Positions 10,846 to 61,841 of a stretch of DNA of 64,000 bases are shown piece by piece. A model generated the notes under the pieces. That model searched no databases. It saw only the letters and a program-made list of their open reading frames with translations, and had not been told where the DNA came from. The stretch lies in assembly GCA_041746255.1 (NCBI GenBank), contig JBGTHM010000125.1, forward strand, positions 64,114 to 128,113, in the 5' to 3' direction. Position 1 is the stretch's first letter. Each line of letters opens with the position of its first letter. A program made the translations under genes and the position numbers. This DNA comes from Fibrobacteria bacterium (GTDB lineage Bacteria; Fibrobacterota; Fibrobacteria; UBA11236).

Positions 10846-13800
10846 TTAAGCTTCTGTGTTGGTTGCATCCACTGGAGTAGAAGCCTGAGAAACTGTTTTC
10901 TCGTGAGAACAGGCGTTGCGAAACCGCTCCCATATATACTCGGATTGCGCGCGCGGTACGGGGCCGATTCGCCTCCATCTGCGATTGAGATCGCGGATGC
11001 GATCTTGGGTTTCTTCCGGTGACAGCGATTGCTCCGCAAGCTTTTCCGCTTCTTCGATGATCTCCAATTTCATGTCCAGGTTTTCCGCAGGATTTTCCTC
11101 TTTCAAGCCCAGAGCCTTTCTGCGGGCGGCGAAAAAATCATCACATGCGGCGCGGAAGCGATTCCAAATCGCGTCGCTTTTTTCCCGTGACACGGGGCCG
11201 ATTCCGCGCCATGCGCGTTGACAGTTTTTTACTCTCTCAGCGGCCTCATCCCAATTCATATCGGGATTGTGAAGGTTTTTTCCGAAGTTTTCGGAAAGTT
11301 TGGACAATTGCCAAGCCATGCGCGCCTGCGTTTCTTCTTCGTTCAGTTCGCGGCCACTTAACATTTCGATTTCGAAGCACAGGTCTTCCTTTTTCTTCAA
11401 ATTAGCTTCCCGGTCTTCGTCCCGCTGTGCAGCATTGGTTTTGAGATTTCCGAAAAAGGCGTCGCAGGCGCTGCGAAAGCGAAGCCACAATTGCCGGTCG
11501 ATTTCCCGCGGCGCTGGGCCTAAAGTGCGCCACTTCTCCTGCAAACTTTTGAAGCGCTCGGAGGTTTCTTTCCAATTGTTGGAATCGATCATGGCTTCGG
11601 CTTCGGCGCAAAGCTCCTCTTTAGCCGTCTGGTTGTCAGCCATCACGGATTTCCGTTGTTCATAAAAGGTATCGCAGGCTTTGCGGAAACGCTGCCACAG
11701 CTCCTCTTCGGCTTCGCGGGGGGCGGGCCCAGTCTCCTTCCAGGCGGCTTGCACCTCACGCACGCGATTGAATTTATCCTTGTCGGATTCCAATTCGTCG
11801 AGAGATTCGACAAGACGTACGAATTCCTCTTTCTTGACCTGATTGGCCGGTCTTTCGGCATCCATGTGTTCCAGGTATTGGTTGCGGGCCGTGAAAAATT
11901 TCTCGCAGGCGCCGTGAAAGCGCGCCCAGAGGGCTTCCGCCTTATCGCGGGGAACCGGACCGGCGGATTTCCATTGTTCCTGGAGTTCCTTGATTTTGGC
12001 AGCCGTCGCGCGCCAATCGGTGGAGTCCTGAAGCGATTCGGCCGTTTCACATAATTCTGTTTTCCGGGCCAGGTTGGCTTGCTGAAACGCATCCCGGGTA
12101 TCGTAAAAGGCTTTGCAAGCACTCCGATATCGGCTCCACAATGCATCGGTATGTTCTTTGGGCACCGCTCCCAGGGCCTTCCAAGCGCTTTGCGCCTCGC
12201 GCACGGTTTCCATGGCTTCACGCCAATCCTCGGCGTTGGCCATAGCTTCGATTTTAGCGCATAACTCTTCCTTGGCTTTGAGATTGCTCTCGCGCTCTTC
12301 GTCCAATTCGGCGAAGTATTCCTTACAGCGCTCGTATATCGTATCGCAAACCTGGTGGTAGCGTTCCCACAGGGCTTCGGAACTGTCCCAGGGAACGTGC
12401 CCCAGCGATTTCCATTGACCCGTGAGTTCGCGGAAGCGCGCCACCAGTATCTTTTTATCCTCGGTTTGCTGTAATTCTTCCAGCGCGGCGCAGATTTGTT
12501 GTTTGCCTTGGAGATTGGACCAACGCAGCCAGTCCAGCGCTTCGCGCAGCCTGTCCGTTATGGACCGATACCGGGTCTGCAATTTTTCATAATCTTCCGG
12601 CGATACCGGCCCTGCGTCTTTCCAGACTTGGTTTAAGCGCTTGAAATCTTTTTCGGCCGCCAGGAGATCATGGCTGTCGACCAAGTCTTCCATTTGCGAC
12701 AGCAGTTCTTCGCGTTTGCGGGTAGTTGCGTCGAAAGAATTCTTCAACAGGGAAGACGCTTCCGAAATGGCGGCATGGAATTTTTGTTCCAACTCCGGAT
12801 CGGTTCCGGCGCCGGGGAGGGATGCCAAGCGCGACCATTCGCCTTGTAGGTTTTCCAGGGTTCTACCGAGGTCGGCATGCTTGTCGGAGGGGGAGTCCGT
12901 GGATGGATTGCGTAGAGTCTGAGCCAGGGTTTCGGCGGCGATTCGCAAGCCTCCCCGAATATCCTGGGCCTCCTGTAACGTTTGGCTTTCCTTGGCTTCA
13001 CGGGCTTGTTGCCGGGATCGGTTTTCCAGGGCGGTAATGGCTTGGGAAAACCGCTTCCGCAAGGAGTCGTCTTCCGGGTTGGCCGTGTCCGCGGCAGGGA
13101 TCGCGTTCCATTGTCGCCGTATGCCGCTGAGGCGCTCCGCTGAGCTGCCATCGTCTTCGATATCTGCAAGCGACTCAAGCTCTTCGCAAATCCGGGTCTT
13201 GGCTTCTCTGGAAGCTTGTTCACGCCTCTCTTTTTCCTGAACCAGGATTTTTTCCTTTTTATAGAGGAATAAGCCCGTTTCAAAAACCTGGCGATTTCTA
13301 GCCAAGCGTTCACTTTGCTCGGAAGTAAGGTCGATTCCTTCGGTTTCCAATTGGGCAATGGCTTTTTGCGCTTCTTCCACTTGTTCGGAAAGCGGTTCCC
13401 ATGCTAAGGCATGCAGGCTATCGGAAAAGCCCGAGGCCTTTTCCGCTTGTTCGGCGGCTTTCTCAATGACCTGAAGGGCCAGCTCCATTTTGGCTTTATC
13501 GATGTTTCCGCGGTTCATTTTGGCCGCTTCTTTTTCGCGGAGCTTGAGTTTTTCCTTGGCGCCCAGCCGCACCGCTTTCAATTTGGCGTTGCGACCGAGG
13601 TTTTCCAATTGTCCCGATTGCCCGACTTTGGCGAGGGCTTTCAATGCGAGGGCCTCGTCGGTTTCCGCCATGGCCAGGTTATAAAATGCGCCGGCGCGCG
13701 TTACGCGCGCGAAGGCGTTGCGCCTTACTTCCAAAGACTGTGCGTTGACGGCGACGTCTTCCACGGATTTGGGATCGGTTATTTGCGCAAGCACGGCCAG

Positions 13801-14103
13801 GCGCTTTTGCAAGGCTTCGGGTGAAGCGGCTTCGGTCTTGGCCTCATCGGTGCGCAGGGAAGTGAGTTTCTTACGCGCCCACTCCTGAATTGATTTTTCC
13901 TGGCTTTTTTCAAGCAGGGCCGTCAGCTTGTTGATATCGGTCAATTTACGGGCTGCTGTCATTCTATTGGCCGGTTCGGCGGCTTCGAGCGCGACGGTCA
14001 GAAGCAGGCTTTGCTGTTCGGAATCCATGGCGTAAATCGCGGCCGCGCGAACGGCGGGATTGCTGTGTTTCCATTGCGGCTTGAAAAAATCGGTGAAACC
14101 CAT
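10846..14103 (-). CDS. DUF349 repeat-containing protein (1085 aa)
   Basis: N-terminal KPQWKHSNPAVR; many repeats of the type K..LC..AE.L.....W......K.LQ..WK..GPVP......LW.RF..ACD.FF. Confidence 0.9.
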   Translation of the reverse strand: MGFTDFFKPQWKHSNPAVRAAAIYAMDSEQQSLLLTVALEAAEPANRMTAARKLTDINKLTALLEKSQEKSIQEWARKKLTSLRTDEAKTEAASPEALQKRLAVLAQITDPKSVEDVAVNAQSLEVRRNAFARVTRAGAFYNLAMAETDEALALKALAKVGQSGQLENLGRNAKLKAVRLGAKEKLKLREKEAAKMNRGNIDKAKMELALQVIEKAAEQAEKASGFSDSLHALAWEPLSEQVEEAQKAIAQLETEGIDLTSEQSERLARNRQVFETGLFLYKKEKILVQEKERREQASREAKTRICEELESLADIEDDGSSAERLSGIRRQWNAIPAADTANPEDDSLRKRFSQAITALENRSRQQAREAKESQTLQEAQDIRGGLRIAAETLAQTLRNPSTDSPSDKHADLGRTLENLQGEWSRLASLPGAGTDPELEQKFHAAISEASSLLKNSFDATTRKREELLSQMEDLVDSHDLLAAEKDFKRLNQVWKDAGPVSPEDYEKLQTRYRSITDRLREALDWLRWSNLQGKQQICAALEELQQTEDKKILVARFRELTGQWKSLGHVPWDSSEALWERYHQVCDTIYERCKEYFAELDEERESNLKAKEELCAKIEAMANAEDWREAMETVREAQSAWKALGAVPKEHTDALWSRYRSACKAFYDTRDAFQQANLARKTELCETAESLQDSTDWRATAAKIKELQEQWKSAGPVPRDKAEALWARFHGACEKFFTARNQYLEHMDAERPANQVKKEEFVRLVESLDELESDKDKFNRVREVQAAWKETGPAPREAEEELWQRFRKACDTFYEQRKSVMADNQTAKEELCAEAEAMIDSNNWKETSERFKSLQEKWRTLGPAPREIDRQLWLRFRSACDAFFGNLKTNAAQRDEDREANLKKKEDLCFEIEMLSGRELNEEETQARMAWQLSKLSENFGKNLHNPDMNWDEAAERVKNCQRAWRGIGPVSREKSDAIWNRFRAACDDFFAARRKALGLKEENPAENLDMKLEIIEEAEKLAEQSLSPEETQDRIRDLNRRWRRIGPVPRAQSEYIWERFRNACSHEKTVSQASTPVDATNTEA

Positions 14104-14400: not shown

Positions 14401-15000
14401 ATGACTAAAGGAATCTGGATTATCCTTATGTGCCTTTTCGGGGTTTCCTTTCCCTATGGAGAACTCTCTCTCGTCGCACCCGATGGCAGGCTTGACGGGG
14501 CTGCCGTCAATTTGATGTTTCACGAAGGTGAGCTCGAGCCTTTGGCTGACCGCCTTGAAGCTTACCTGAAGGTCACTCCCGAAAGTAATGAGGAAGATAG
14601 GCTGATAGCCTATAAATTTTTGGGGATAATCCACTCTTCGAGACCGGAGTCCCGCCTTAAAGGTGAGAGCTATTTTTACCAAATGCTTAAAATTGCGCCC
14701 AATATTGAATTGGTGCAGCCATATGTTTCCGACCGGATTCAGGAGGTATTCCAGAACGTGAAAAAGGAATACCATAAACGCGAAGCTCTCACCAAATTGC
14801 ACGATGAACTGGGTCGTCCGATTGAACTATCGGACTCCATTTCCGAACCGGTAGATAAAAAAAAGGGCAAGCGCAGAATTTGGGCGCTGGTCGGCGCAGG
14901 AGCGGGATTGGCGACTGCAGGGGGTGTCGTTGCCTGGTATATGACGTCTGACAGGGGAAACAAAAAAGCTGACCCTCAGATCATTGAGGTGGAGCCATGA
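14401..15000 (+). CDS. Exported hypothetical protein with a helical (TPR-like) domain and a C-terminal hydrophobic Gly/Ala segment
   Basis: Signal-like N-terminus from ATG 14401 (MTKGIWIILMCLFG); C-terminal WALVGAGAGLATAGGVVAWYM; ATGA overlap with the next gene. Confidence 0.75.
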   Translation: MTKGIWIILMCLFGVSFPYGELSLVAPDGRLDGAAVNLMFHEGELEPLADRLEAYLKVTPESNEEDRLIAYKFLGIIHSSRPESRLKGESYFYQMLKIAPNIELVQPYVSDRIQEVFQNVKKEYHKREALTKLHDELGRPIELSDSISEPVDKKKGKRRIWALVGAGAGLATAGGVVAWYMTSDRGNKKADPQIIEVEP

Positions 15001-17756
15001 GCAATCAAGTCTTATCGAAACTGGGATACGGACTATTGCTGGTTGCATCGGTATTTATCCTACAATTTTGCACTCAACCCGAATCAGAACCCAAATCCCC
15101 TCGAGTACTTTCTTTTAATCTTAATGATTCCTTAGAGCGATACGATAGCTTGTCCCTGATACTAGCCGATGAATTTGGAAAGCCCATCGACACGATTTTT
15201 TCAGGGCGGGTTACCCAGGAAACATCCATAAAAAAGTACACGCTCCCGTCAGGATTGAATCGGTTTCAGATAATCCGTACAGGATGGAAATCCGATGGAA
15301 TCGACGTAAAGACGCTAATCTATTCCGGAACGGAATTGACTGAAGAAGTCTTCACATCCCAATCTTTGGTGCCTGGAAAGGACCCGTTAAATACAGGGAA
15401 TAAACCCGGGGTGAAATTGGATTCAATTCGTGTCGGAAAATTCGTGGAGGGGCTAATTGGTAGGATCGAGTTTTGGGGGCGTTCCGAGTCAAAATCGAGT
15501 CGTATCGAAGTGGTAAAGAAACCGGAAGCGGCGGACTTTGAGTTTACGGAAAAACAGGGAAGTTTCAGTGCCGTACTGGAATGGAAACCCAACGAGACGG
15601 ATATAGGTGAGCACGCATTGGTGTTCCGGATTTTGGATAGTGTGGCCGCAATGGATACGGTATTGAAGGTGACGGTATCCGGTGCTTATTCGCTGAATCT
15701 TTCTTCGCAGGGAGATGGGGAAGTGAGGCCATCGGGGAAGCATAAGGCGATTGGGCCTTTGGGGGTGAGGGCAATCGCAGGCCCGGGCGCCTTTTTCCAA
15801 AAGTGGCTCATAGTCAGCGGCAAACCGGAAATAGACGATGTTTTCCAAGATTCCACCCGGATTACCCTACGCGAGGGCGATGTGCAAGTCGTCGCCGTTT
15901 TCAACGCCACCCCTCCCCCCAAAGTTCATTTTACTTCGCCTACGGCGGGGCTGAAATTCCAAAAGGATATTCCCATCGAAGTGAAGGTGAATGTGAATGA
16001 TTCGGGTGGAAAGATCAGCCGCATGGTGCTGACTTGGCGGAACCTAACTTATGGTAAGGAAGCGGAGATTCCCATGGAAAAACCTCCATTCGAGCGCTCC
16101 TTGGATTCACTTCTCGGCGGTAGCTATGCTTTAATCGTAAGTGCTTTGGGCGAGAATGGCGCAGAAGGACGTGACTCCCTCAATTTCAGCATCCACTCTC
16201 CGCCCATGGTGAAAATGCAATCCACACACGTTTCGGTGGCTGCCGGAGATTCGGCACGCTTTCAATCCCAATTGGCCGAAGGCGCCTACCCGGAACCCGT
16301 TTATCAGTGGAAAAGGGAAAATAAGACCCTGCCGGAATCGGGAGCTGAACTCCTTTTTCCTTCTGTCGCATACGGCGACGAGGGAACCTATTCGCTGCTG
16401 GTTTCCAACGAAGCGGGTTCGATGGAATTAAAGGACTTAACCCTTGAAGTCAAAGACGTGATCCCACCGAAGCTGGCGCTGGTTGGCGCGGTCGACACAG
16501 TAATCGCCATCAATTCCTTTTTCGCCGAACCCGGGGTTAAGGCGACGGATGATAAGGATGGCGAGATTACCGACCGAATTCGGGTGAGCGGCGCAGTTAA
16601 TCCCCAGAAAATCGGGAAATACTCCCTGACCTATACCGTTGAGGATATGGCGAAAAATTCCACGTCGATGGTAAGAACGGTAATAGTCGCGGGATGGGCG
16701 CTGGTGGATTCGACGAAGATCTGTTGTTCAACTTATATGGCGGGTATTGCGGCGAATGAAGATGGCGATCTCTTTCTTGCCTATTTGGACCGGTTGAACA
16801 CGGTTCATTTGTTGAAAAAACCTGCGGTCGGGGATTGGGTGGAATTGGCTGCGATGAAGGTCAGTGAAGATGTGAGGTCGGTGCGGATTAAGGTTTCACC
16901 CTTAGATAGACTACCTCGTATTGCATCATTGGCATGGAGTTCTGGCATAAAGTCGTATAAATGGAATGGGCATCAATTGGAGCAAACACACGATTTTTCC
17001 ACTTATGTGCCCGACAATACAGAAGCGTTTGATTTTGCAATTTCACCCGTTACCGGCTTTCCTGTTTTTTTGTTTTCTAAGGATTGGAGTGCGCGTTGGT
17101 ATACATCAGAAAAAATCGATTCTCCTCTTTTTGAACCCCAAGGGTTTATAGCAGATTATGCCGGTGATGATGTGTTTTCCATAAGTATGTCCCGGCAAGG
17201 AATTCCCTACATAACCTTTAACCTTGGGGATAACAAGGTTGTGGTTTACAAATATGTAGGGGAGAGTTGGGAACAAGTGGGTCCTGTAGTTGCGGATTAT
17301 TCCCAATATCCCTCGAATGGAAAAAGAAAACAAATCAAGTTGGATGCTGACGGGAGGCCTATAATCGCCATCTTTCCCGAAGGAAAGGCCCCTACGGTAT
17401 TTCGCCTGGCTTCGCAGTGGTGGGCAAACCTTTCGGGAATAGAAGACGAGAAGTTACAGTCCTGCAAAGGTGGAGCCTTGACCGTAGACGCAGGGAATTC
17501 ACCCGTAATCGCCTGCATTCAGGAATCTCAGGGGGCGTACAACGGAATCGTGGTCAAGCAATATCGGAAAGACAAATGGATATCAATGCCGGAGACTGAT
17601 CCTTCCGTCTTGTGGCTGGGTCATTCCCTTAACTTCCATAAACTTGCTCTTGAGGTTTCACCAGAGGGGGACCTTTATTTAGCGGCAGCGGAAGGGAATG
17701 GCTCCACCGATAGAATTTATGTCTGGAAATACCATGATCCGTCGACATTGAAATAA
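14997..17756 (+). CDS. Large surface lipoprotein with Ig-like/cadherin-like, DUF5011(HYR)-like and putative beta-propeller domains
   Basis: Lipobox-like ILQFC; Ig motif YQWKR...DEGTYSLLVSNEAG; DUF5011 motif EPGVKATDDKDGEIT...GKYSLTYTVED; C-terminal repeats ending in W. Confidence 0.8.
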   Translation: MSNQVLSKLGYGLLLVASVFILQFCTQPESEPKSPRVLSFNLNDSLERYDSLSLILADEFGKPIDTIFSGRVTQETSIKKYTLPSGLNRFQIIRTGWKSDGIDVKTLIYSGTELTEEVFTSQSLVPGKDPLNTGNKPGVKLDSIRVGKFVEGLIGRIEFWGRSESKSSRIEVVKKPEAADFEFTEKQGSFSAVLEWKPNETDIGEHALVFRILDSVAAMDTVLKVTVSGAYSLNLSSQGDGEVRPSGKHKAIGPLGVRAIAGPGAFFQKWLIVSGKPEIDDVFQDSTRITLREGDVQVVAVFNATPPPKVHFTSPTAGLKFQKDIPIEVKVNVNDSGGKISRMVLTWRNLTYGKEAEIPMEKPPFERSLDSLLGGSYALIVSALGENGAEGRDSLNFSIHSPPMVKMQSTHVSVAAGDSARFQSQLAEGAYPEPVYQWKRENKTLPESGAELLFPSVAYGDEGTYSLLVSNEAGSMELKDLTLEVKDVIPPKLALVGAVDTVIAINSFFAEPGVKATDDKDGEITDRIRVSGAVNPQKIGKYSLTYTVEDMAKNSTSMVRTVIVAGWALVDSTKICCSTYMAGIAANEDGDLFLAYLDRLNTVHLLKKPAVGDWVELAAMKVSEDVRSVRIKVSPLDRLPRIASLAWSSGIKSYKWNGHQLEQTHDFSTYVPDNTEAFDFAISPVTGFPVFLFSKDWSARWYTSEKIDSPLFEPQGFIADYAGDDVFSISMSRQGIPYITFNLGDNKVVVYKYVGESWEQVGPVVADYSQYPSNGKRKQIKLDADGRPIIAIFPEGKAPTVFRLASQWWANLSGIEDEKLQSCKGGALTVDAGNSPVIACIQESQGAYNGIVVKQYRKDKWISMPETDPSVLWLGHSLNFHKLALEVSPEGDLYLAAAEGNGSTDRIYVWKYHDPSTLK

Positions 17757-17890
17757 TTCGGATCATTTTTCCGCATCGAGCAGAATCTACCCAGGCATCC
17801 TGCGCCATGGGATCAAATCAACTTGGGGGCAAATTTACCCGCCCAACTTAACATATATGATAAGTTCGAGCGGAATATTTCTTGGGATTA

Positions 17891-17904: not shown

Positions 17905-17986
17905 CCGGCCCTCCCTCACTCCGAAGCCATGTTGGTATCTTTCCGTACTCGAACCCGTTGACCCGATTCCCTTTCTCGATTAAGCC

Positions 17987-19894
17987 ATGCCGCTCAAAAC
18001 CTATATCCGCCTTGCCGGCGTAAACGGATTCTTTCCCGGCCCCATCGACTTGCCCCGCCGTGAGAATTGCTATCCGCTGCTGGAAGGCGCGCACTCCGTG
18101 CGCATGTTGCGACAGCGCAGCAACGGATTTACCGGCACCCGCCACCTCCGCTTCCACGAACCTTTTTTCGCCTCCTTTCCCCTGGATAAAGCCTACCCTT
18201 CGTTGATGCAATGCCTGTGCCATAGCGGCACTTTGCCTCTGGTGGAAATTTCGCTGTGGGATTTGGTGGAAGGGAGCTTCGAGGAGGAGCCGAAGGAAAA
18301 ACGGATTTTCCTTTATACGCTGGAAAATGTGAAACTGACCCAGGTGCGCACGCTGATGCGCGTTGCAAAGCTGGACGGAAAATTGCTACAAGCGCGCGTG
18401 GCGATGGTCTATGACAAGGTGACGTGGCTGCATGACGAGGGCTATCTCCTTTTCTGGGATAGCTTGAAGGATACGGGCAAGGAGGAGGCCAAGGAGGAGC
18501 CCGATCGGGGCGACGCGGAACCCGCGCCGGCTCCGGTTAAAAAGGTGGTCGAGGTGTTGCTGCAAAATCCCGTATGGGATTCGACGGAAGTGGGCTTCAA
18601 TGAAGAAGCCACGCTGTCGGTGGAATGCCAATTGCCGGAGGAACATAAAAACCGCAAGCGAGTACAGTTCGTGCTTTTCGCCAAGACCCCGAACGGTCCC
18701 GAGCAAATCGCCAAAGCCGACGGATTCACGGAAAACGGTCGTGCGACTTGTAAGATGCCGGTGTTTAAGCCTCAATATCACGGGAACGGTGAGGCTCCGA
18801 AAGAAGTGGAATATTTTTTCACCGCCAAACATACGCTGTCGGAGCCGTTGGATTCGGGGGCCAAGCCCGAAGGCGTGAAGTCGGTGGATAAGATGGCGGA
18901 ACCGCTGATCGACACGCATGTGGTGGTGGGCGTAACGTTTGGATTCGATTCGAGTTTTCTGCACCCGGACCAGATTCCAAAGTTGAAAGAATTGTGCGAG
19001 AAAATCGGGGCTTGGAGGAAGAGTTATCCCGACGGTAAGATGGCGTTGTTCGGGCATACGGATGCAGTGGGTAAGGAGTCCTACAACAAGGGGCTGTCGG
19101 AGCGGCGGGCGCGTTCGGTTTATGCGTTTTTGATGGGCGATTCGAGCGTGTGGGAGAATTTGCACAAGGAGGAGAATTGGAGTTTCGCCTGCACGCAAGC
19201 TTTGGTGAAGCAGGCGGGTTACGATCCCGGGGCGATTGACGGGTCGGATGGGCCGAAGACGCAAGGGGCGGTGAAGGGTTTTCAGGAATCACAGGGGCTT
19301 AAGGCCGATGGGATTGCGGGACCCAAGACGCGGGAGGCATTGTTTACTGGGTTTCTCGACGCAGTGCCGGAATTCAAGGGTCTGGGCTTGAAGACGAAGA
19401 ATTTTGACAAGGTGGACGGGCAGCCGAATATGGGTTGCAGCGAGTTCAACCGGGTGGAGGTCGTGGAGGGTAGGAGTGAGGCCAACCGGCGGGTAACGGT
19501 TTTGTTGGTGAAATCGAGCCAGACCTTTCCGATGGAGTATCCCTGTAAGCGCGGGAATATCGGGCCGTGCCAGAGTCAGGTAAAGAAGGCGGGAGAGCGG
19601 CGGACTAAGGGGTTCGGGTGTAAGTTTTATGATGGGTTGGTGGTGGAGGCGGTGATTTCACCTTCTGGGAGTCAGACATCGAAACCACAAAATCGCCGGA
19701 TTCGGATTCTGGATTTGGATGGAAACCCCTTACCCGATGCGGGTTTGTGTATGGACAATGGGGATAAATTGTCTCCCGATAACGAGGGCTGGTGTGAACT
19801 GACCCCGGAATACGGGTCCGCTACCGAATTTCACGTGGATACCCAGGCGATCGCAATGTATTGGAATTTGAATAAAAATGAGGGGATAGCTTAA
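17987..19894 (+). CDS. Hcp/TssD (T6SS tube)-like domain fused to Ig-like, OmpA-like (with inserted PG_binding_1) and C-terminal transthyretin-like domains
   Basis: aa 1-160 follow the Vibrio-type Hcp pattern (HSV...G.R.HEPF....LDKA.P.L.Q.L.....L..VEI..W...YTLENV.......V...YDKVTW.H). OmpA motifs FGFDSS, GHTDAVGKESYNKGLSERRA, NRRV. PG-binding motif GYDPGAIDG.DGPKT..AVK.FQ...GL.ADGIAGPKT. No signal peptide. Confidence 0.8.
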   Translation: MPLKTYIRLAGVNGFFPGPIDLPRRENCYPLLEGAHSVRMLRQRSNGFTGTRHLRFHEPFFASFPLDKAYPSLMQCLCHSGTLPLVEISLWDLVEGSFEEEPKEKRIFLYTLENVKLTQVRTLMRVAKLDGKLLQARVAMVYDKVTWLHDEGYLLFWDSLKDTGKEEAKEEPDRGDAEPAPAPVKKVVEVLLQNPVWDSTEVGFNEEATLSVECQLPEEHKNRKRVQFVLFAKTPNGPEQIAKADGFTENGRATCKMPVFKPQYHGNGEAPKEVEYFFTAKHTLSEPLDSGAKPEGVKSVDKMAEPLIDTHVVVGVTFGFDSSFLHPDQIPKLKELCEKIGAWRKSYPDGKMALFGHTDAVGKESYNKGLSERRARSVYAFLMGDSSVWENLHKEENWSFACTQALVKQAGYDPGAIDGSDGPKTQGAVKGFQESQGLKADGIAGPKTREALFTGFLDAVPEFKGLGLKTKNFDKVDGQPNMGCSEFNRVEVVEGRSEANRRVTVLLVKSSQTFPMEYPCKRGNIGPCQSQVKKAGERRTKGFGCKFYDGLVVEAVISPSGSQTSKPQNRRIRILDLDGNPLPDAGLCMDNGDKLSPDNEGWCELTPEYGSATEFHVDTQAIAMYWNLNKNEGIA

Positions 19895-19895
19895 G

Positions 19896-21167
19896 ATGAG
19901 TGAGAAATCCAAATCTTCCAGTTCACGAGTTGAAGTTTTCTCGAATCAGCCTTTTCAGTTGCAAGAGAATCAAAACGATGTCGACGTGGTGGTTATTCAC
20001 AAGCAGGAATTGAAATTCCAAAACCTTTCGGTGGATTCGACCACTCCGAGCCTTACCGTTCAAGTGAATTCGGATGGACGGACAAGGCTTCATTATGTTC
20101 CTGAAACCAAGGTCGCCGGAGAAAGAATATCGATAAAAGGTCCAGATTTGTGTGAAATTTGGTTTCCCCGGCCCGTTAATGAAAATACGGAATTTCTTTT
20201 TTCAGGAATTTCCAAGCCTTTTTCCATGAACATACCTTCGCGTTTCATCAATCCGGCCGACCCGATGTACTTCATGTACGGAGAGCTACCGGGATTTACT
20301 TCTAAGCCGTCGACACCTGCTATTACCCCTTCTTCCATGGGCAAAGTTCCTCCCGGATTGGAGGATTTATTCATTACTGTGGCGGACACCGACAACACAC
20401 TGGTTGCTGGTGAATTCCGCGAGGGGTTGAACCGTGTTGAAGATTTGAGGGAAAAGCAGAAAGGGCTTTTGGAAATATTGTTGTTGAATACCATTTCCAA
20501 TAAAAACTTGGCCGGTGCGGCAGGTCAAGTTATCGACAACTTTGGCTTGCTTTCGGATTTTGCACGTGGCGGAAGATTTTACATCAAAATAACAGATGGA
20601 AAATACTATGTCATTTTCAAGGGATACCCTGGGCTGCGGCGAATCTATACGAGTTCAAGATATCGTTTGGACAAGAATTTCACCAAGTTTTCGATGCTGA
20701 CAATCGCGCAGGGCGTGACGCCTGCCCTGAAATCGGCCATCCCCAGATTGAGTAAAGGGAGTACCATCGGTTTACTATGGGTTGGTAGCACAAATACCTA
20801 TTCCTGGCTGCAGGAGGATGAAAAATTCCTCAGCGATTTATTGATTCAAATGGGATCGGATATAGTTAAGGCGGTGGCAAGTACCATTGCCGCTGCGTTA
20901 ATAATAGCAATCGGAATAGTCTTCACCGGGACGTCCTTGGCGATCTTTACATTAATTATAGGAACAATATTTTTTGGATTTGCTATCGGTATGGGCCTGG
21001 ACATAATCGATAACTGGCTAGGTGTTACTGATATAGTCAAAAAATATGGCAGGAAAATAAGCGCCCCTCTCGCGCCGCTTTGGAGATCCTATATCGATGA
21101 GCCGCTTTCCAGTTTTTTACAAAAGGCAAGTTGGGAAGTCATGCGAATTGATTTGAGGTCGCCATGA
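19896..21167 (+). CDS. Putative Tme-family membrane-disrupting (pore-forming) antibacterial effector
   Basis: C-terminal half has YVIFKGYPGLR, then a DxxK motif (SDIVK, D322), two hydrophobic helices and LDIIDNWLGVTD, the pattern of Tme effectors. Starts 1 nt after the stop of the Hcp fusion. Confidence 0.7.
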   Translation: MSEKSKSSSSRVEVFSNQPFQLQENQNDVDVVVIHKQELKFQNLSVDSTTPSLTVQVNSDGRTRLHYVPETKVAGERISIKGPDLCEIWFPRPVNENTEFLFSGISKPFSMNIPSRFINPADPMYFMYGELPGFTSKPSTPAITPSSMGKVPPGLEDLFITVADTDNTLVAGEFREGLNRVEDLREKQKGLLEILLLNTISNKNLAGAAGQVIDNFGLLSDFARGGRFYIKITDGKYYVIFKGYPGLRRIYTSSRYRLDKNFTKFSMLTIAQGVTPALKSAIPRLSKGSTIGLLWVGSTNTYSWLQEDEKFLSDLLIQMGSDIVKAVASTIAAALIIAIGIVFTGTSLAIFTLIIGTIFFGFAIGMGLDIIDNWLGVTDIVKKYGRKISAPLAPLWRSYIDEPLSSFLQKASWEVMRIDLRSP

Positions 21168-21937
21168 AAGGCTCCTTGCCTGTTGCATTAAGGTCCGAAA
21201 AAGATTTTCGGAATAGCATACGCATCGGAATCATTCCTACTTCGGTGTTTTTTTTGCTATTGCTTTTGTATTACCCTATTTCGATAGCTATGTTTATTTA
21301 TTTTCCGTTCATAATTGCACATATCATTGTTATTTATATATCGAAGGATTCCTTTGGACTGCTAGCCCATCACAGGCTATTTCCTTCCATACTATTTGTG
21401 GCATGGCCTTACCTTTTTTGCTTGTTATACATCGCGTATGCAGGGAAGGCAACGCAATATCATCCGATCTATTTCCCCTCCCTTCTTGCATTGGGAAGCT
21501 TTTCATTTATTTTGACATTCTACTTCGGATTTAAGGATTGCCTGGCATTGGATGAAAAATCCGTTGAAAAACGCCTGAGGTCCGTGGATTGGGAAACAGG
21601 AATTTATGATGTCGAAACCCATTCCCTTGAATCGGTAAATATATTCGGAGTAATAGTTGAAAGCTTTCCGACCTGGAAATTGGTTTACCAGATTGGGTTA
21701 ATCCTCTCCCCGGGTCCAATTATACTTTTTACTGCCAAACACATTTCGGGACACCTCGTATCAATAATTATGGTAGCAGTTGGGTGGGGAGGGGCCATAC
21801 TATTTGGTGGAATATCGATAGAGTTAATCTATGATGCTTGGTTCTTGCGTAAAATGGAAAAAGAAAAAGGCGTTCGACTGGTTTTATCGAATTCTACCCG
21901 TGCAAATGAAATTTTTAAAAAAACTCGGGATGAATGA
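21164..21937 (+). CDS. Polytopic membrane protein, putative cognate immunity protein
   Basis: About 5-6 TM helices, very AT-rich, ATGA overlap with the effector stop. Confidence 0.65.
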   Translation: MKGSLPVALRSEKDFRNSIRIGIIPTSVFFLLLLLYYPISIAMFIYFPFIIAHIIVIYISKDSFGLLAHHRLFPSILFVAWPYLFCLLYIAYAGKATQYHPIYFPSLLALGSFSFILTFYFGFKDCLALDEKSVEKRLRSVDWETGIYDVETHSLESVNIFGVIVESFPTWKLVYQIGLILSPGPIILFTAKHISGHLVSIIMVAVGWGGAILFGGISIELIYDAWFLRKMEKEKGVRLVLSNSTRANEIFKKTRDE

Positions 21938-22089: not shown

Positions 22090-22986
22090 TTGGTACAGAA
22101 ACTGTTTCTATTCTCGGTTTTTCTTGGCAATATATGGGCGCAATCCGGTGAAGAAATCCTGGAAAAACACGGGCTTACGGACCCTGATTTCAAACTGGAC
22201 GGTTTGGATTTCTCCTCCTTAACTAAAACAGTCGACTCCAGCGTGTATTTCTATCAGGGTACTACCAATCGTTTGGATAGTATGCATCAGCTTTATGAAT
22301 TTATGTCGCCCGCACCTGAATACCGCAAGGCCACCTTTTCCTATGTAAAAAGCAAAATGGGTCGTTACGAACGTGAAATAAAGGTGGATACAAAAACTAA
22401 TGAAGTCATTTATGATGAAACTCGTCAATTCGACAAGCATGACAAACTTCTATCAGTGAATACGCTGTCCGAGTCAATGGGTAAATCCGTCCAGGGTAAT
22501 ACCTATGACGAGCGCGGCAATCGCATCAGGACCCTAAGTTTCAATAATGAAAATAAGGTCGTGGGAGATAATTCTTTCGAATATGACTCCCAAAACCGTA
22601 TGGTGAAATGGATAAATAACAGTTACACAAATGAACGATATCGCAAATATTACTACACAGATTTTGACAGTTTATCCGCGGAAAGCAACGTCTACCCCGA
22701 AGAAAATCGAGAGGACATGTTTATCGTCTCTTTCTTCAACTCGGAAAAGTTACTCTGGAAATCAATCCACTATGCCTTTGACACGGTTCGGTCTCCACAA
22801 CTTATTTGGTACCATCAATACGATTCTCTCCGAAGAAAGACTAACTCCTATCTCTTCCAGTGGCTGGACACCACCAAGCCTTGGCGTATGGAGGATATGA
22901 CCTTGAGGTGGCGTGAAACCTATGAAGATGATTCGCGAAACCGGCTGAAACGGAAAATCATTCGGGAAGTGGGTTTTGATGATTAG
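22090..22986 (+). CDS. Exported YD/RHS-like repeat protein
   Basis: Signal-like N-terminus; repeats YDERGNRI, FEYDSQNRMV, YDSLRRKT, YEDDSRNRL. Confidence 0.65.
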   Translation: MVQKLFLFSVFLGNIWAQSGEEILEKHGLTDPDFKLDGLDFSSLTKTVDSSVYFYQGTTNRLDSMHQLYEFMSPAPEYRKATFSYVKSKMGRYEREIKVDTKTNEVIYDETRQFDKHDKLLSVNTLSESMGKSVQGNTYDERGNRIRTLSFNNENKVVGDNSFEYDSQNRMVKWINNSYTNERYRKYYYTDFDSLSAESNVYPEENREDMFIVSFFNSEKLLWKSIHYAFDTVRSPQLIWYHQYDSLRRKTNSYLFQWLDTTKPWRMEDMTLRWRETYEDDSRNRLKRKIIREVGFDD

Positions 22987-53463: not shown

Positions 53464-56400
53464 TCAATAACCCTGAGGCAGGCTTTTCCGATCGCCTCCC
53501 AATCGGGTAAAATTCTTGAAATGCTTCTGGGCTTCGTCCTTCTGGGCGGATTTGTCGGCCACAATGCCCGCATAATAAGAAGACATGGGGTCGTCCGGAC
53601 ATAACGATAGGGCGTAGCGCGAACTGGCCGAAGAAGCCTGGATATTGTTCATATCCAGCAATACTTTCGCCTGGGAAAGGTACAGCGCGCAGGAGCGGGG
53701 ATTTCCCGTCAATCCTTCTTGAAGGAGCTCCTGGGCTCCTTTCGCTTGACCCTGTGCCAATAAAACCTCGGCCAATGCCACGATGCCTTCATCGTAATTG
53801 GAATCGTGCTCCAAGCTACGTTGCGACCATTGTTCGGCTTCGGAAATGTCGCCTAATTGCAGGCAGGTACGCGCCAGTAAAGCCATGACGGCGGGGTTGT
53901 CCGAAAATTCGAGCGAGCGCAGTAAAAAGTCGCGCGCCTCTTCGGTTTTGCGTTCGGCCAGTGCGGCTCGGGCTAATCCTTGAAAACCCTTGGCCATGCT
54001 GGTGCGGTTGAATGACTGGGTCAGGGCATGGAATTGATCACGGGCCTTATCCAGCCGTCCCAGCTCAAGATAACATTCTCCGGCCATGAAACTGGCGGGA
54101 GAGAAATCCGGCTTATGTTTGAGCGCAGCCTGGAATTCCGCGAGGGCCCTATCGAACTTCCTTTGTTCAAGGTAGGCTTGTCCGAGATTGTAGCGGAATA
54201 TGGCATTGCTCTCATCCTCTTTAACCAGACCGGCGAAAATGGTTCCGGCCTTGTCCCGCTCCCGCAATGCCAATAGCGACTGTCCCAGCGCCAGCCGCAC
54301 GGCCGTATCCTGCTTGAAGGAGGAAGACTCTATCAGCCTGCGGGCTTCTTCGGCACGCTTATTTTTGAGATGTAATTGGGCTAGACCGGCGACGGAAGCG
54401 GCGCTCGGGGACTTTTTCATCAGTTCGGAAAATTGCAGCATGGCCGTCTGCTCTTGCCCCAAACCGGTCAAGGCCTGGGCATAAACGAGGCGACTGGCAG
54501 GACTGAGTTCGGATACGCGCGGTCCCAGCATTTCCACGGCGATGGGGTAGTCCTCAAGGCGATAAAAAACGTCGGCCAAAGCCTCGGTATAGGCAAGATT
54601 GCCGGCGTCGTAACTCAAAGCGGTGCCGATTACCTCTCCCGCTTTTTCAAGGCGCCCCTTTTCCAAATGCACCAAACCCAGCCAATATCCGGCCTGGTGG
54701 TTTTGCGGTTGGCGGACAACCAATTCCTCCAATGCAGGCTGGGCATCCGATAGGGTGCCGCGGGCATGATGGATGCGGCTCAAGTTGTAAAGCAGCGCGG
54801 GATCCCTTTCGCCATGTCGCCAGGCATTGGTATAAGCCTTCAATGCCGGTTCGGATTTTCCCGATTCGAATAGCGCATGTCCCCATTGAACCTGATGATC
54901 CATAGTGGCTGGATCGATTCCCGCTAAGCGACCGTATAACGAGGCGGCGTCCCCATACTTCTTTTCCTGAAGTCTAATCCAGGCGAGGCCGCCCAAGGCA
55001 TGGAGGTTGTTCGAATCCAACCGTACCACGTCGGAGAAGGCCTGGGGAAGTTGCTGAGCCAGCCCCAGGTTTTGACTCAGCTCCATTTTGGCTATGGCGA
55101 CTTCCACATCGGACGGATCGACGGAGAAGGCCTTGACGAAGGCGTCGGCTGCCTGCGTCTCTTCGCCTTGGGAACGCAGGCTCATGCCCGTCAATTTCCA
55201 GGCCAGGGCTTGGATAGGCTTGGGCTGTTGAGGGATGGTCGCGGCTCCTTGCTTAAGCAGAAGCAGGGCGGAAGGGAAATTGCGATGCTGTGCCAAAGAG
55301 ATGCCTAGGTAGAGTGAAGCCTTGGCGTGGTCGGGTTTTTTGTTGAGAAGAATGTCGTAATAATCGGCGGCTTGGGCCAATTCGCCTTTGGACAGATGCC
55401 CATCGGCCAATTGTTCCAGGTAGGCTACCAATTCGGAGAGATAATCTTTGCGATCAAATTTCAATTCATGGCTGCGAACGTAATATTCCAGCGCCTTATC
55501 GATACGCCCCAGGCTGCGTGCCAATTGGGCCGTGGCAAAATGCAGCTCGGCGTTGGTGGGCTCCAAATTGACGAGCCGATCCATGGCCTCAAATTGCTTG
55601 GCGGGATTTTTAAGACCTGCATGCGCGTCGGCCAGAAGTTTCCAACTCTCGGAAATTTGCGGCTCAGAACGGGTCCAGCTTTCCAGGAAAGCCAAGGCCT
55701 CGGAATGCCTTCCCAATGCCATCGCCAATTGCCCTCCCCGTCGCTGCGCGTTCACGTCGGCCGGATTGGAGGCCAGTATTTCGCCGTAGAGTTTCAATGC
55801 CGAGGGGTCCCGCCCCAGGGCGGATGCATAGGCGTATTTGACGGCCAGGTCCTGCGGGAATGCTTCGTGTCCTATTCGGAGAACTTCCGTCAGGTGGCGC
55901 GAGGAAGTCGCTTCCCCATATATCCAAGCCTTTTCAAAGGCGCTCTTAAAATCTACCGCAGGGCCGACATCCCTCCGGTAGAGCATGTTATCGTAGAATG
56001 CCTGATTCGCTTCATTCTTTTTCTCCTGGTAGGCATAGGTTTCCGCCAGGGGAGCCAGCATCCACCGCTCCTTTTCCCTCTCGTCGCGCATGAATTTCTC
56101 GAAATGACGCAGCCGGTCGAGGTCGTAGCGTTGGTAATACTCCGAGACGAGAAGAATACGGCCCACCCGGTATTGAGGATGCTTCTTGACCAGTATTTCA
56201 ATGGGCTCGGGGTTGCCGGTGAACTTGAAGTCCAGCTCTGCCAGTTGGAATGTGTATTTCACGTCGGCTTTTTTCAAATCGACGAGATAGCGCAACGAAC
56301 TTTCTAGGCTGGCTGTGTCTTTCGTATGTTCGGAAAGCGCATGGAAGGACACCAAGGCATCCATGTCACGGGGATTACGGGCCGCCCATTGCCCATAATG

Positions 56401-59400
56401 GGAAATGGCGTCGGGGAAACGTTTGGCGGTTTCCATGGCCTTGGCCAGGCGAAGTTGGAAATCCTTGTAAACCGGATCGTAGCCGACAATGCGTTCCAGC
56501 GCTCCAACGTATTTCCCGACATCCGCAATCTTGACGTAGAGTCCCGAGAGGGTATCGAGGAAGGGTGGGCTGACGATACCTGAGGCGTCTTCGTGACCCA
56601 ACCGCAATTCGTACATGGCAACGGATTTGAGGAGTTGGTCCGTCCGCAAAAAGGCCTCTGCGGCCAAGGGGAAGTAAACCCCGGTCACGCGTTTGTCGGT
56701 GAGGACGTCATCCCAGGCGCGGGCGGATTGCGGATATTTTCCGTTAAGGTAATAGGAACCGGCCAACTTTCTTTTTTCGAGTTGATCGGGATTGTTCCCG
56801 GCCAGGAATTCGAAAAGCGCCAACGACTCCCGGATTTCCTTATCCGTTTTGAGGGTTTGCCCATAAGCGCGCGCGTAAAGCAGGTTTTTGGGTTCGAGTT
56901 CATAAGCATGCTTCAGGGCGCCGACTCCGGATTCGGTCATGCCTAATTTGGAGTAGCTGAAGCCCAGCTTGTACCAGGCTTCGGCTTTCTTGGGTAAACC
57001 CTTTACCGCTTCGCTTAACAGCGTGGCGGTAGTCCGGAACTTTTCATTCCCGAAATAAAAATTTCCCAGAAGCCATTGGTATTCCGCCCGGTTTTCGGCA
57101 TCCAGGTTGATCAGTTTTTCCAAGGTTACGACATAAGTCACCCTCTCTTCTTTCTTTCCCTTGGTGATGGATAGCAGCATTTTGTAGCCGCGAGCATCGG
57201 TAGGGTTGGTATTGAGGCAGCTGCGGATGTTGCTCATGGCCATGGCTGTGTCGCCTGCCTTGAGGTCCAATTCCGCCAGGCGAAGCAAGCCGCCCGCATT
57301 TTCGCGATCTACGATGAGAAGGTGTTGCAGGGCGATGCGGATATCCGTTTCCTTGCGGCCGGTTCTTTCATAGGAAAGGATCTGGATTTTCCGGACTTCC
57401 ATATCGTAGTCGGGATTGACTTCCAGGTAGCGTTCCGCCAGGTCGGCGGCCAGGACATAATCCTTGGCCGCGAATGCTCCGATGACGGCGCGTCGGTTTC
57501 CCAATATCCGGGAGGGAATCAAACGATTTGCGAGCGAATAATATTCACCGGATTTTGTCCATTGTTGTTTGAGGAAATACCCCTCACCCAAAAGGAGGAA
57601 TAATTCGGCGTTGGCCTTGTCATTCGGATTCGGCTTGGCGGAAGCCATCCGTTCCAGCACCGGAAAATATTTCATTATCTGCCCTTCGCCGGTGATGACG
57701 CTGGGTATAAGGGCCTGGTAGGCTTTGACATCGGGAGCCTTATTCAAAGCCATGCTCAAATATGCGTAGGCTTTATCCTTGTCCTTCTTCTGGAGATAAA
57801 TCTTCGCCAATTCAAACTGGACCTCGTGAGCGCTGGTATCCAATGCCTGGATTTCCTGGAGAACCTGGGACAGCTCATCCTCCTTGCGCAGCGATTTAAG
57901 CAGCGCCACCACCTTATCCCGCACGGCCTTGTCGTTGGGTTTCATGTACAAGGCCATTCGATAGTATTCCAGCGACTTTTCCGGTTTCCTTAATTCTTCG
58001 TAAACGCTTCCCAAACGCATGCTCAGTTCCAAATCGCCATGGCGCAGCGCATGCAAACCTTCGAGAGCGGGTGCCAGCTTGCTCTTTTCATTTGCTCGGG
58101 TGTGTAAGGCGATAAGCTGATTCCAGGGCTCGGGGTCGTTTTTGTCAAGCTGGGTCCAGCGATTTAACCATTGGGCCGCCACGTCCATTTTCTTCAAGGA
58201 TAAGGCGATTTCCACGGCCTTTTTCACCGCTTCGACGTCTTTGGGCCGCTTGGCAATTATTCCCTGGTAGAGGGCGAGTGCTTCCGCTGTATTGCCCAAG
58301 GTTCCGGCATAGGATGATTTTATGGAGATATCCTCGCCAAAGGTCTCGCTGCCTGATTTCAGTATAGCGGGAAGATGTTGGGAGCGGGTTTTACGCGCAT
58401 GGTCCAAAACCTTATTGAAAATGTCCCGGTCCTTATTACGGGCGGAGAGTAGCGAGTAATAAATCCGGCCCGCCTCGGCGTGTTTCTCCTGAAATGCATA
58501 GAGATCACCCAATGCTTCCAAAAGTTCGGGATTCCCTTTTGCCTGGGAGGTCAGGTCCGGCTCCAGCTTCGCCAATTTTTCGAAGTCGCTTCGATTATGG
58601 TATTCGCGGATAAGTATTAGTTTGGCCTTGGTATAACCGGGGTTGGCTTTAACCAGATCTTCCAACCGGCTTATTTCACCTCCGCGCTCGTAATGCAATT
58701 CCGCCTGCTGAAACCGGAATTTGGGATCCGCATCCTTATGGTTCACCAACAGGTTCAAGGCGTCGATGAGGCTGGCAGTGTCCTTGCGGGATGCGGCCAG
58801 CCGATGGAAGGCCTCCAGGGCGGGAAGGTCGTCAGGATTGTGAAAAGTCCACTGCGAGTAGAAGCGTAATGCTTCGGAAAAATTTCCGGATTTTTCCTGC
58901 GCGCGCGCCATTTGCAAGAGGTAGTCTTCATGCGTGAAGCTGACGTCCAACACTCGCGCCATCAGCTCCAAATGCTTCTTGGGATTGCTGGATTTGTATA
59001 TCTCAGCTAACTGGGTCAAAACTTTCAGGTCCTTGGGATTTTTTTCCAGGCGCTTTTCCAAAAGCAGTCGTGCCTTTTCAGGTTGGCGCGCCTGCAAAAA
59101 ACTTTCGGTAGCCAGGGGGTCTTCCAGGGCGATGGGGTTTCGGTTGTTTACGAACCAATCCCATTGTAAGGCCGCGCCTGCGTAGTCTCCGTTCAGAAAA
59201 TAGGCATGCGCCAACTTACGTCTCTGTTCGGGCGTGGGATTGTTGGAGCCTACGACTTTGAACAAGGCGAGATTATCCTTGAGGTCGGTCGGAGCGTTGA
59301 GGATATCGGCCAATCGGCGGGCGTATTCGGCATTGCGTGGATCCAGATCCCAGGCTTTGCGGTAATGTTGCGCGGCGTTTTCCCGGCCGAGCTCCTGTGA

Positions 59401-61386: not shown

Positions 61387-61607
61387 GTGACCTCCGAAGG
61401 GGACGGGAATGGAGCGGATCCGGCTTGCCATGGGGGCTTGGTGGCCGGCAAGGCATGGTCGGATTCTAATTATCCCACCGAAAAAATTGAAGTCAAGGCG
61501 TATTGGGTTTTTTGGGAAAACTACTTCGGGGCCAATGTTAAAACCCGGCTTGAAAAGGGAATCTAGGTGAATTGTCGGCATGCCGGGGATTATAATGGCT
61601 GGGAGCC

Positions 61608-61841
61608 ATGGAAACACTATTTGATCACGAACCGAACGATGAAGAGCTGCAATTCCTATTCTTGGCCGGTCAAAATCGGGAAAAATACCTCGAAACCATA
61701 AGAGACCAGGAAACGGAGTTCGGAAATATCTACGCACTTTACATGATTCGAGGCAACCGCGATAAAGCCATGGAATATTTAGGGAAAATCCGAAATCCTA
61801 AAGAGCACTTCAATTCCAAAAAGGGCGGCACTGCCCGTTGA
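61608..61841 (+). CDS. Small hypothetical protein (77 aa)
   Basis: GGGAG RBS before the ATG; natural helical composition; 4 nt before the next co-oriented gene. Confidence 0.65.
   Translation: METLFDHEPNDEELQFLFLAGQNREKYLETIRDQETEFGNIYALYMIRGNRDKAMEYLGKIRNPKEHFNSKKGGTAR

Follow-up and report, generated by a model that had tools for sequence, protein, structure and literature searches.

How would a protein that joins an Hcp domain to two domains of the peptidoglycan-binding kind, and that bears no export signal, come to act at a cell wall? The question is raised by a single open reading frame (ORF) of 635 amino acids (P0001) at positions 17987..19894 (forward strand) of the stretch analysed here, 64,000 nucleotides of contig JBGTHM010000125.1 from a Fibrobacteria bacterium (assembly GCA_041746255.1), which we refer to as the window. 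Our analyses revealed an N-terminal Hcp domain, a head composed of an Ig-like sandwich and an OmpA-like domain with a nested PG_binding_1 (PGB1) domain, and a short C-terminal tail. The protein has no export signal, the genome encodes a type VI secretion system (T6SS), and a conserved region of ~555 residues is followed by unrelated tails in the protein's relatives. We propose that the protein is probably a specialised Hcp effector that would be delivered to the periplasm of prey cells, where its head would bind peptidoglycan. To judge by the sequences, the ORF belongs to a polymorphic effector family with four copies in this genome.

Architecture of the Hcp fusion and its family

The protein is divided as follows (window coordinates, all on the forward strand):

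17987..19894, forward: whole ORF, 635 amino acids plus stop; predicted specialised Hcp of a polymorphic effector family.
17987..18466, forward: divergent Hcp (TssD) domain, residues 1-160 (PF05638, phmmer, alignment, model and Foldseek).
18467..18544, forward: acidic, Pro-rich linker, residues 161-186 (sequence; low pLDDT).
18545..18895, forward: Ig-like beta-sandwich, residues 187-303 (pLDDT >90; structural matches).
18896..19141, forward: N-terminal part of the OmpA-like domain, residues 304-385, with GHTD..G....N..LS.RRA (PF00691 profile positions 1-66 of 98; conserved residues).
19142..19381, forward: three-helix PG_binding_1 domain inside the OmpA-like domain, residues 386-465, Pfam core 406-452 (PF01471; structure).
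19382..19516, forward: C-terminal part of the OmpA-like domain, residues 466-510, with GCSEFN...NRRV (OmpA-like chains align over model residues 309..509).
19517..19654, forward: conserved Cys segment, residues 511-556, with FGC.FYDGLVVE at its end; conservation stops here and the variable tail follows.
19655..19894, forward: variable tail, residues 557-635 plus stop, found only in this copy (singleton among 76 unique tails; pLDDT mostly <50).

The frame is closed by a TAA at 17981-17983, two codons 5' of the ATG (the open frame measures 636 amino acids, by sequence and genome scan), so that an N-terminal extension or a hidden signal peptide is impossible, and residue 1 already aligns with canonical Hcps. 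Kyte-Doolittle hydropathy reaches a top 19-residue mean of only 1.23 over the whole protein and a top 10-residue mean of 1.11 in its N-terminal region, and the protein therefore contains no signal-like or transmembrane (TM) segment. An upstream signal peptide was thus looked for and ruled out, in agreement with an earlier note on this ORF that had described it as lacking one. That note had placed the end of the gene at 19650, which falls just past the Cys segment; the ORF runs 244 nt further and encodes 79 more residues.

The first 160 residues form a divergent but genuine Hcp domain, as the earlier note had supposed when it called them Hcp-like. The Pfam family T6SS_HCP (PF05638) matches residues 18-149 over profile positions 9-129 of 129 (E 1.2e-5; 26.0 bits, cut-off 23.5; 29.9 bits in the genome scan), and the domain aligns end to end with canonical Hcps. 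Of its further phmmer matches, all 25 that were scanned belong to PF05638, and most of them are Hcps without a fusion partner, ~155-205 residues long. When residues 1-165 were modelled alone, pLDDT was 86.7 and pTM 0.82, the underlying alignment being rich in canonical Hcps and biasing the model toward the Hcp fold. Foldseek returned 77 matches to this model in the Protein Data Bank (PDB) at E<=1e-3; all those listed contain Hcp, a few of them engineered Hcp1 fusions, and the best are 4hkh_A (TMq 0.79, TMt 0.87) and 6a2v_A (E 8e-12). The Hcp part of the full-length model has pLDDT <50, and a predicted complex between the genome's canonical Hcp and the Hcp domain of the fusion scored 0.02 against a mark of 0.32, which is not evidence either way.

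The nearest relatives of this Hcp domain outside the family (P0132, P0133 and P0141) are Hcp fusions of 499-806 residues with ~29% identity over the Hcp part, one with an Amidohydro_2 domain and one with a weak PGB1 match; together they suggest that some Hcp domains form a clade of their own, specialised for fusion. Another protein, P0144 (461 residues), combines two Hcp-domain stretches with an FlgD-Ig-like domain and a sub-threshold match to a type IX secretion C-terminal sorting domain, an odd combination in which an Hcp-like protein is apparently routed via the type IX system.

What does the remainder of the protein consist of? In an AlphaFold model based on an alignment of 70 sequences, residues ~186-556 are mostly above pLDDT 90, with a dip to ~73 at residues 311-320, and the structural units within this confident part were found by an all-against-representatives structural search. 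The Ig-like sandwich (residues 187..303) is matched best by BtaeB-NTD, from a T6SS effector of B. fragilis (Bacteroides fragilis; 9jdh_A, Z 10.9), followed by generic macroglobulin and Ig domains at Z ~9, for example an alpha-2-macroglobulin MG domain (4u48_A, Z 9.2). Pfam detects OmpA (PF00691) at residues 317-384 over profile positions 1-66 of 98 only (34.7 bits, cut-off 27.2) and then PG_binding_1 (PF01471) at residues 406-452 (E 4.8e-14; 52.7 bits, cut-off 23), and NCBIfam gives sub-threshold matches to families of the same three kinds (Hcp, OmpA, PGB1). The complete OmpA-like fold is regained over residues 309..509, where the peptidoglycan-binding domain of TagL (5m38_A) aligns with Z 11.7, rmsd 2.5 and 111 of 113 residues, a match that is not specific because many Pal/OmpA/MotB domains also reach Z ~11. 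Nested at residues 385..459 is the three-helix PGB1 bundle, resembling phiKZ gp144 (3bkh_A, Z 10.0) and SltB3 (5anz_A, Z 9.2, rmsd 1.3). The split is real, because OmpA-like structures align across both halves; Foldseek concurs, spreading OprF (5u1h) over about 205 columns though this target has 122 residues. These results confirm the earlier note's outline of an acidic, Pro-rich linker, an Ig-like region and a split OmpA-like domain with a peptidoglycan-binding insertion, and its motifs RRARSV, NRRV and YPC..GPC..FGCKFY were found where it had named them.

The residues GHTD..G....N..LS..RA together with NRRV constitute what we take to be the OmpA Asp/Arg signature for peptidoglycan contact. 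Counted over the 52 alignment rows that cover the head, its positions are nearly invariant (D359 in 51/52; R373 and R374 in 49/52; N500 in 52/52; R501 in 50/52; R502 in 49/52), and 49/52 rows retain the four cysteines (C484, C520, C528 and C545). We infer that the OmpA-like and PGB1 domains of the head bind peptidoglycan; the cysteines may form disulfides in the prey periplasm, or a metal site.

The genome encodes a canonical Hcp plus four Hcp fusions, all with the pattern Hcp, OmpA (profile positions 1-65) and PGB1. Identity of the paralogs to the window protein is 77-85% over the first ~555 residues. They are conserved column by column through FGC.FYDGLVVE (residue 554) and unrelated thereafter, with tails of 81, ~93-95, 347 and 553 residues, two of the four thus being short. 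Polymorphic toxins are recognised by just such an abrupt switch, here after a shared region of ~555 residues. Among 5.8 billion proteins searched there were 146 matches; of the 77 best homologs, 67 show the motif C.F[YF]D.L[VI] at the end of the head, and the tails behind it measure 83 to 553 residues. From 83 tails collected, 76 unique ones fall into 18 BLAST classes (two come from genome G254, and the class count stays 18 without them). A conserved N-terminal region that switches abruptly to unrelated C-termini is therefore seen both in the paralogs and across the 18 tail classes. The earlier note had called for a search by architecture and taxonomy; it had missed that all four paralogs and ~70 relatives share the Ig/OmpA::PGB1/Cys head and differ in their unrelated tails.

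How constant is the head, and what do the tails encode? A Pfam scan covered 62 of the 74 proteins P0004-P0077, the 12 omitted being mostly short or partial and one exceeding a size limit. PGB1 is present in 62/62 of these relatives, and the OmpA match is confined to profile positions <=71 of 98 in 61/62, the exception being N-terminally truncated. Tail matches comprise the Tle1-like T6SS phospholipase (two), GH19 (one) and NlpC/P60 (one), besides sub-threshold matches to CHAP (one) and M6 (one). The identifiable tails, Tle1-like lipase, GH19 and NlpC/P60, are thus of types predicted to act in the periplasm. HExxH occurs in 43 of the 76 unique tails, including the two largest classes (23 and 17 members). 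PDB sequence searches with the paralog tails gave no matches, and for the 553-residue HExxH tail of the paralog on contig C89 there was none at E<=1.

The part in front of the head varies as well. Among 21 family ORFs callable at 30 related loci, only two have the Hcp form, both from the window's own genome (G000); at least two Hcp-fused copies, truncated at contig ends, are present in the only other genome of this genus, and a more distant database protein, P0017, is likewise Hcp-fused. In most relatives a short leader of ~50 residues, 'MNLDPF...DEIFVKSK.GG.GRR', takes the place of Hcp and is followed by the same acidic, Pro-rich linker and head; such leaders occur in P0004-P0066 and, in sister genera, at loci L013, L015, L037, L068 and L071. 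The Hcp-headed architecture that the earlier note described is real in the window protein; the prevalence of the short leader had escaped it. We regard the 'MNLDPF' leader as a candidate modular loading signal for the T6SS. A 48-residue leader query against the 32 genomes of the window's taxonomic family produced seven matches in five genomes, none identified on another protein body; two lie on known family genes and five in short or contig-end frames that were left uninspected, and so short a query makes for an insensitive search. Further removed are P0078-P0111, some labelled Gemmatimonadota, which are 381-1108 residues long, lack a signal peptide and carry a nested OmpA(1-66)::PG_binding_1 module ~120 residues from the start. 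They begin with a LysM-like 'MGFDKR..DGDTL..IA..FNWG', do not have the Cys motif, and perhaps constitute a further polymorphic family that is loaded by a different domain.

Type VI secretion and the proposed delivery

The genome encodes a type-i T6SS, split over contigs, with Hcp-TssE-TssF-TssG on C26, TssL-TssM-x-TssB-TssC at the end of C62 and VgrG on C97. Its TssL (276 residues) shows a DotU domain only, with no OmpA extension. Across the phylum, the head (residues 186-556) matches 23 of 296 genomes; 18 of these 23 come from the window's own family, which counts 31 further genomes, and copy numbers reach six or more per genome. TssC is present in 23/23 head-positive genomes and in 115/296 overall (G254 figures in both counts); counted by genus, which is fairer because related genomes are not independent, the figures are 8/8 head-positive genera and 44/70 overall, a weak co-occurrence. 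It is suggestive of a link between the family and the T6SS. At 12 loci of relatives, one has a DUF2169 gene two genes away.

One paralog has a T6SS effector for a neighbour. A gene of the Tae4 amidase effector family (PF14113, E 8e-20, 150 residues) lies at C80:6739-7188 of G000, forward strand (L009:4740-5189), convergent to the Hcp-fusion paralog on that contig. Between the two is a gene for a 226-residue, lipoprotein-like WG-repeat protein, which could provide immunity to Tae4 or to the C80 paralog.

We propose the following model. The Hcp domain would be built into, or ride on, the T6SS tube and enter a neighbouring Gram-negative cell when the tube is fired. Once in the prey periplasm, the OmpA-like domain and its nested PGB1 domain would bind peptidoglycan, keeping the arm, and with it any toxin, at the sacculus, and the four conserved cysteines may become oxidised there. 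In long-tailed copies the variable C-terminal part would be the toxin. For the short-tailed window copy we would favour the product of the next gene, P0121, as a membrane-acting cargo and the five-TM protein encoded behind it as immunity. The earlier note had reasoned that domains of this kind, in a protein that lacks a signal peptide, could reach a wall only through the tube, and this part of its argument holds up: a real Hcp domain, T6SS genes in the genome, a polymorphic-toxin family and tails of periplasmic type all fit that route. Its further suggestion, that cargo may be tethered in the target periplasm, is plausible.

Surroundings of this copy and competing explanations

Two genes follow the ORF closely, and a palindrome precedes it:

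19896..21167, forward: coupled gene P0121, 423 residues, ORFan; candidate cargo toxin (TAA-g-ATG junction; C-terminal hydrophobic hairpin).
21164..21937, forward: gene for a 257-residue protein with five hydrophobic segments; candidate immunity protein (ATGA overlap with the P0121 gene).
17844..17867, no strand assigned: 24-bp palindrome CAACTTAaCATatATGaTAAGTTC, a candidate operator or promoter element within the conserved stretch 5' of the ORF.

P0121 starts one base past the stop of the Hcp fusion and is overlapped by 4 nt (ATGA) by the next gene, and these two tightly coupled genes, which the earlier note did not mention, probably belong to the unit. P0121 has a hydrophobic hairpin at residues 319-356. 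Neither it nor the 257-residue protein has a Pfam or NCBIfam match. P0121 has no counterpart in the 32 genomes of the taxonomic family beyond its own; the search of 5.8 billion proteins, restricted to near lengths, retrieved only P0121 itself, and no PDB sequence match was better than E 0.9. In an atlas comparison, to be read as leads only, its neighbours are unnamed Pseudomonadota clusters (0.96 and 0.95) and, weakly, the T6SS-labelled ImpA (0.88) and VasL (0.82). The 79-residue tail of the window protein is a singleton among the 76 unique tails, belongs to no recognisable family and reaches atlas scores <=0.88, with a CarboxypepD_reg cluster at 0.85, again as leads only. A transthyretin-like adaptor in residues 557-635 was considered from a pattern read by eye and set aside, as no test supported it.

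Which of these parts would carry the toxic activity? P0121 as the toxin, the five-TM protein as its immunity and the 79-residue tail as an adaptor could quite well be the arrangement, although we would stop short of calling it probable. That the tail itself is a small toxin seems doubtful, and that the peptidoglycan-binding head is the only payload of the short-tailed copy seems rather unlikely. At the 12 relatives' loci the downstream gene lies on the same strand within 132 nt at seven, on the opposite strand at four, and beyond a contig end at one. Genes downstream of the other paralogs and of several relatives have starts that, read by eye, resemble signal peptides or lipoboxes, and no immunity family was recognised among the downstream genes. 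Full-length homology (31% identity, E 3e-63) links the gene that follows the 1110-residue paralog with the one that follows a member of the same tail class in another genus. Behind the three-gene unit of the window, at 22090-22986 (forward), a 298-residue protein has a signal-peptide-like start and a very weak match to RHS repeats (E 0.09).

About 170 nt are conserved 5' of all four paralogs. The palindrome GAACTTAnCATnnATGnTAAGTTC within this region recurs at about 14 intergenic sites of the genome, among them sites upstream of all four paralogs and of the Tae4 gene; besides the one in the window, the sites in G000 are C41:1982, C56:5949, C73:3738 and 36845, C80:6488 and 9960, C89:30715, C96:5943, C102:77794, C116:6861 and 7428, and C123:9274 and 14214. 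It resembles an operator for a dimeric regulator or an element associated with promoters. Its use as a marker of a T6SS regulon was rejected, since it also stands beside purL-, glucokinase-, panB- and pabB-like housekeeping genes. Between palindrome and start, the paralogs on C80, C123 and C89 have a GC-rich, hairpin-like segment of ~42 nt (CCCCC..TTCGGGAATTCAGGGGG) that the window copy does not have; the start codon is ATG in the window copy and GTG in the other three. Elsewhere in the window, a 1085-residue protein with nine DUF349 repeats (10846-14103, reverse strand) and a 919-residue secreted protein with several Ig-like domains (14997-17756, forward) have no obvious tie to the Hcp fusion, and a giant ORF of 2757 residues occupies 53464-61737 on the reverse strand.

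Several observations weigh against delivery of a toxin-bearing Hcp effector to the prey. The Hcp domain is divergent, its PF05638 score lying just 2.5 bits above the cut-off; the stricter TIGR03344 gives it 34.9 with a cut-off of 58.9, phmmer found only 28 matches at E<=1e-3 among 1.84 billion representative proteins, and the stand-alone model carries the bias described above. No Hcp, VgrG or PAAR is encoded among 62 neighbour genes at the 12 relatives' loci, and the co-occurrence with TssC is weak at the genus level. No Pfam match at all was found for the tails of 56 of the 62 scanned relatives. Because neither the tail nor P0121 of the window copy has detectable relatives, their proposed roles are drawn only from position and hydrophobicity. 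Finally, the third member of the loosely linked tail class mentioned above is followed by an unrelated gene (one of the two compared).

The absence of Hcp from most relatives, which have the short leader instead, the distance of the family genes from T6SS genes and the divergence of the Hcp domain would all fit a protein that is not delivered by the T6SS, its Hcp-like domain acting, for instance, as a scaffold for oligomerisation and the family being released by lysis or some other route. We consider this quite improbable, given the presence of TssC in all 23 head-bearing genomes, the Tle1-like T6SS lipase domains among the tails, the Tae4 gene beside one paralog and the fact that Hcp-toxin fusions are an established mode of T6SS delivery (PMC8262886, PMC6099711). 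Alternatively, the protein might be an accessory structural component by which the producer fastens its own T6SS to its own wall, in the manner of TagL or the OmpA-like extension of TssL. The TagL peptidoglycan-binding domain, from the T6SS of EAEC, is indeed the best structural match of the OmpA-like part (5m38_A, Z 11.7), and the TssL of this genome is without an OmpA extension; however, Z ~11 is common to many Pal/OmpA/MotB domains, no signal peptide or TM segment would take the protein into the producer's periplasm, and four paralogs with unrelated tails, together with enzyme-bearing relatives, are unlike a structural part. We find this explanation hardly tenable.

Could the head itself be the weapon? 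It would then be a non-catalytic toxin that coats peptidoglycan or sequesters its precursors, as 'Tox-OmpA' might, with optional tails and a short-tailed copy that is complete as it stands. For PVC-delivered proteins, a role of OmpA-superfamily domains as non-catalytic toxins was proposed by Zhang et al. 2012 (PMC3482391), the head is conserved far better than any tail, and two of the four paralogs have only short tails. We nevertheless think it unlikely, since the OmpA domains of Zhang et al. stand at the extreme C-terminus, whereas those described here are always internal with a variable tail behind them; long tails include recognised enzymes; and one head in four paralogs would need a single immunity, whereas the downstream genes differ. 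It is also improbable that the window copy is a decayed or orphan member that lost its toxin tail by recombination or truncation and is followed by two unrelated neighbours. Its tail of just 79 residues is a singleton, P0121 is an ORFan and the ~42-nt upstream segment of the other three paralogs is missing, but the ORF is intact with all signature residues of the head, the conserved upstream block and the palindrome are retained, and the 1-nt junction and 4-nt overlap argue for a maintained operon. Moreover, a tail of similar length is seen in the C80 paralog, and a lipoprotein-like gene comes next. A specialised Hcp effector acting in the prey periplasm thus remains our preferred reading. A more far-reaching version of it is possible, and we put it forward tentatively: the head may be a dedicated periplasm-retention module of a new class of T6SS effectors, in which two cooperating peptidoglycan-binding domains would clamp the toxin to the wall and disulfides formed by prey catalysts would lock it. 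The module would be loaded by Hcp fusion in this genus or by the new leader signal of ~50 residues in sister genera, and a third variant would be the cassette that stands behind a LysM-like leader in other phyla.

Relation to known systems

Specialised Hcps, peptidoglycan-binding domains in T6SS proteins and such domains in polymorphic toxins are already known. In the literature consulted we found no description of the nested OmpA::PGB1 module, of its use as a pre-toxin head, of the alternation between Hcp and leader, or of T6SS effectors from this phylum; OmpA, PG_binding and Fibrobacter are absent from the main text of PMC11148199, the supplements of which could list such architectures. What the family adds is a conserved pre-toxin module of ~370 residues with peptidoglycan binding as its only recognisable function, which points to retention of the toxin at the prey wall. 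Its tails, in at least 18 classes and most without known domains, are candidate antibacterial enzymes, and the family provides an initial look at the T6SS effectors of the Fibrobacterota, a phylum that has received little study.

The HExxH tails of the family's two largest classes recall VgrG2b of Pseudomonas aeruginosa (PMC6899460), in which an HExxH domain is fused to a T6SS structural protein. That domain is toxic in the periplasm only, and a downstream gene encodes the periplasmic immunity protein that neutralises it (PMC6899460). The resemblance is one of motif and arrangement, with no sequence relationship shown (the C89 tail has no PDB match at E<=1), and the window copy itself is without an HExxH tail. 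VgrG-3 of Vibrio cholerae (PMC6099711) likewise fuses a T6SS structural protein to a peptidoglycan-binding domain and attacks the wall in the prey periplasm; it relies on a VgrG carrier, a single peptidoglycan-binding domain and one fixed peptidoglycan hydrolase, whereas the family described here combines Hcp, OmpA::PGB1 and polymorphic tails.

With TagL and the OmpA-like extensions of TssL (5m38, 4b62), which anchor the T6SS to the cell wall, the window protein shares the OmpA-like fold and the peptidoglycan-contact signature. Those anchors are inserted in the membrane and act in the producer's periplasm, while the window protein has no export signal, a nested PGB1 domain and the frame of a polymorphic toxin. 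Tox-OmpA and the PGB1/LysM adhesion domains (Zhang et al. 2012, PMC3482391) are also peptidoglycan-binding domains within polymorphic toxins that have no classical enzymatic role. Tox-OmpA lies at the extreme C-terminus of PVC-delivered toxins, in contrast to the internal, T6SS-linked pre-toxin module described here, and nesting goes unmentioned in the accessible portions of PMC3482391.

The closest parallel is offered by Hcp-ET1 to Hcp-ET5 of the Enterobacteriaceae (PMC6099711, PMC8262886), which, like the window protein, have an N-terminal Hcp and a C-terminal extension of more than 60 residues. According to PMC8262886, a functional demonstration of specialised Hcps exists for only a few E. 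coli proteins; by the extension length of more than 60 residues used there, the window protein, with ~475 residues, counts as a specialised Hcp. Hcp-ETs have exchangeable toxin domains, including one of the DUF2235/Tle1 lipase clan, and a downstream immunity gene (PMC6099711, PMC8262886). In the accessible accounts they join Hcp to the toxin with no mention of an intermediate module, whereas in the window protein a head of ~370 residues, made up of Ig-like, OmpA::PGB1 and four-Cys parts, stands between Hcp and tail. Unlike the Hcp-ETs, moreover, the fusions described here come from another phylum, their Hcp domain is unusually divergent, and the same head also occurs without Hcp in sister genera. 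That one genus has the head after Hcp and the next has it after a short leader amounts to a natural experiment on what suffices for loading into the T6SS.

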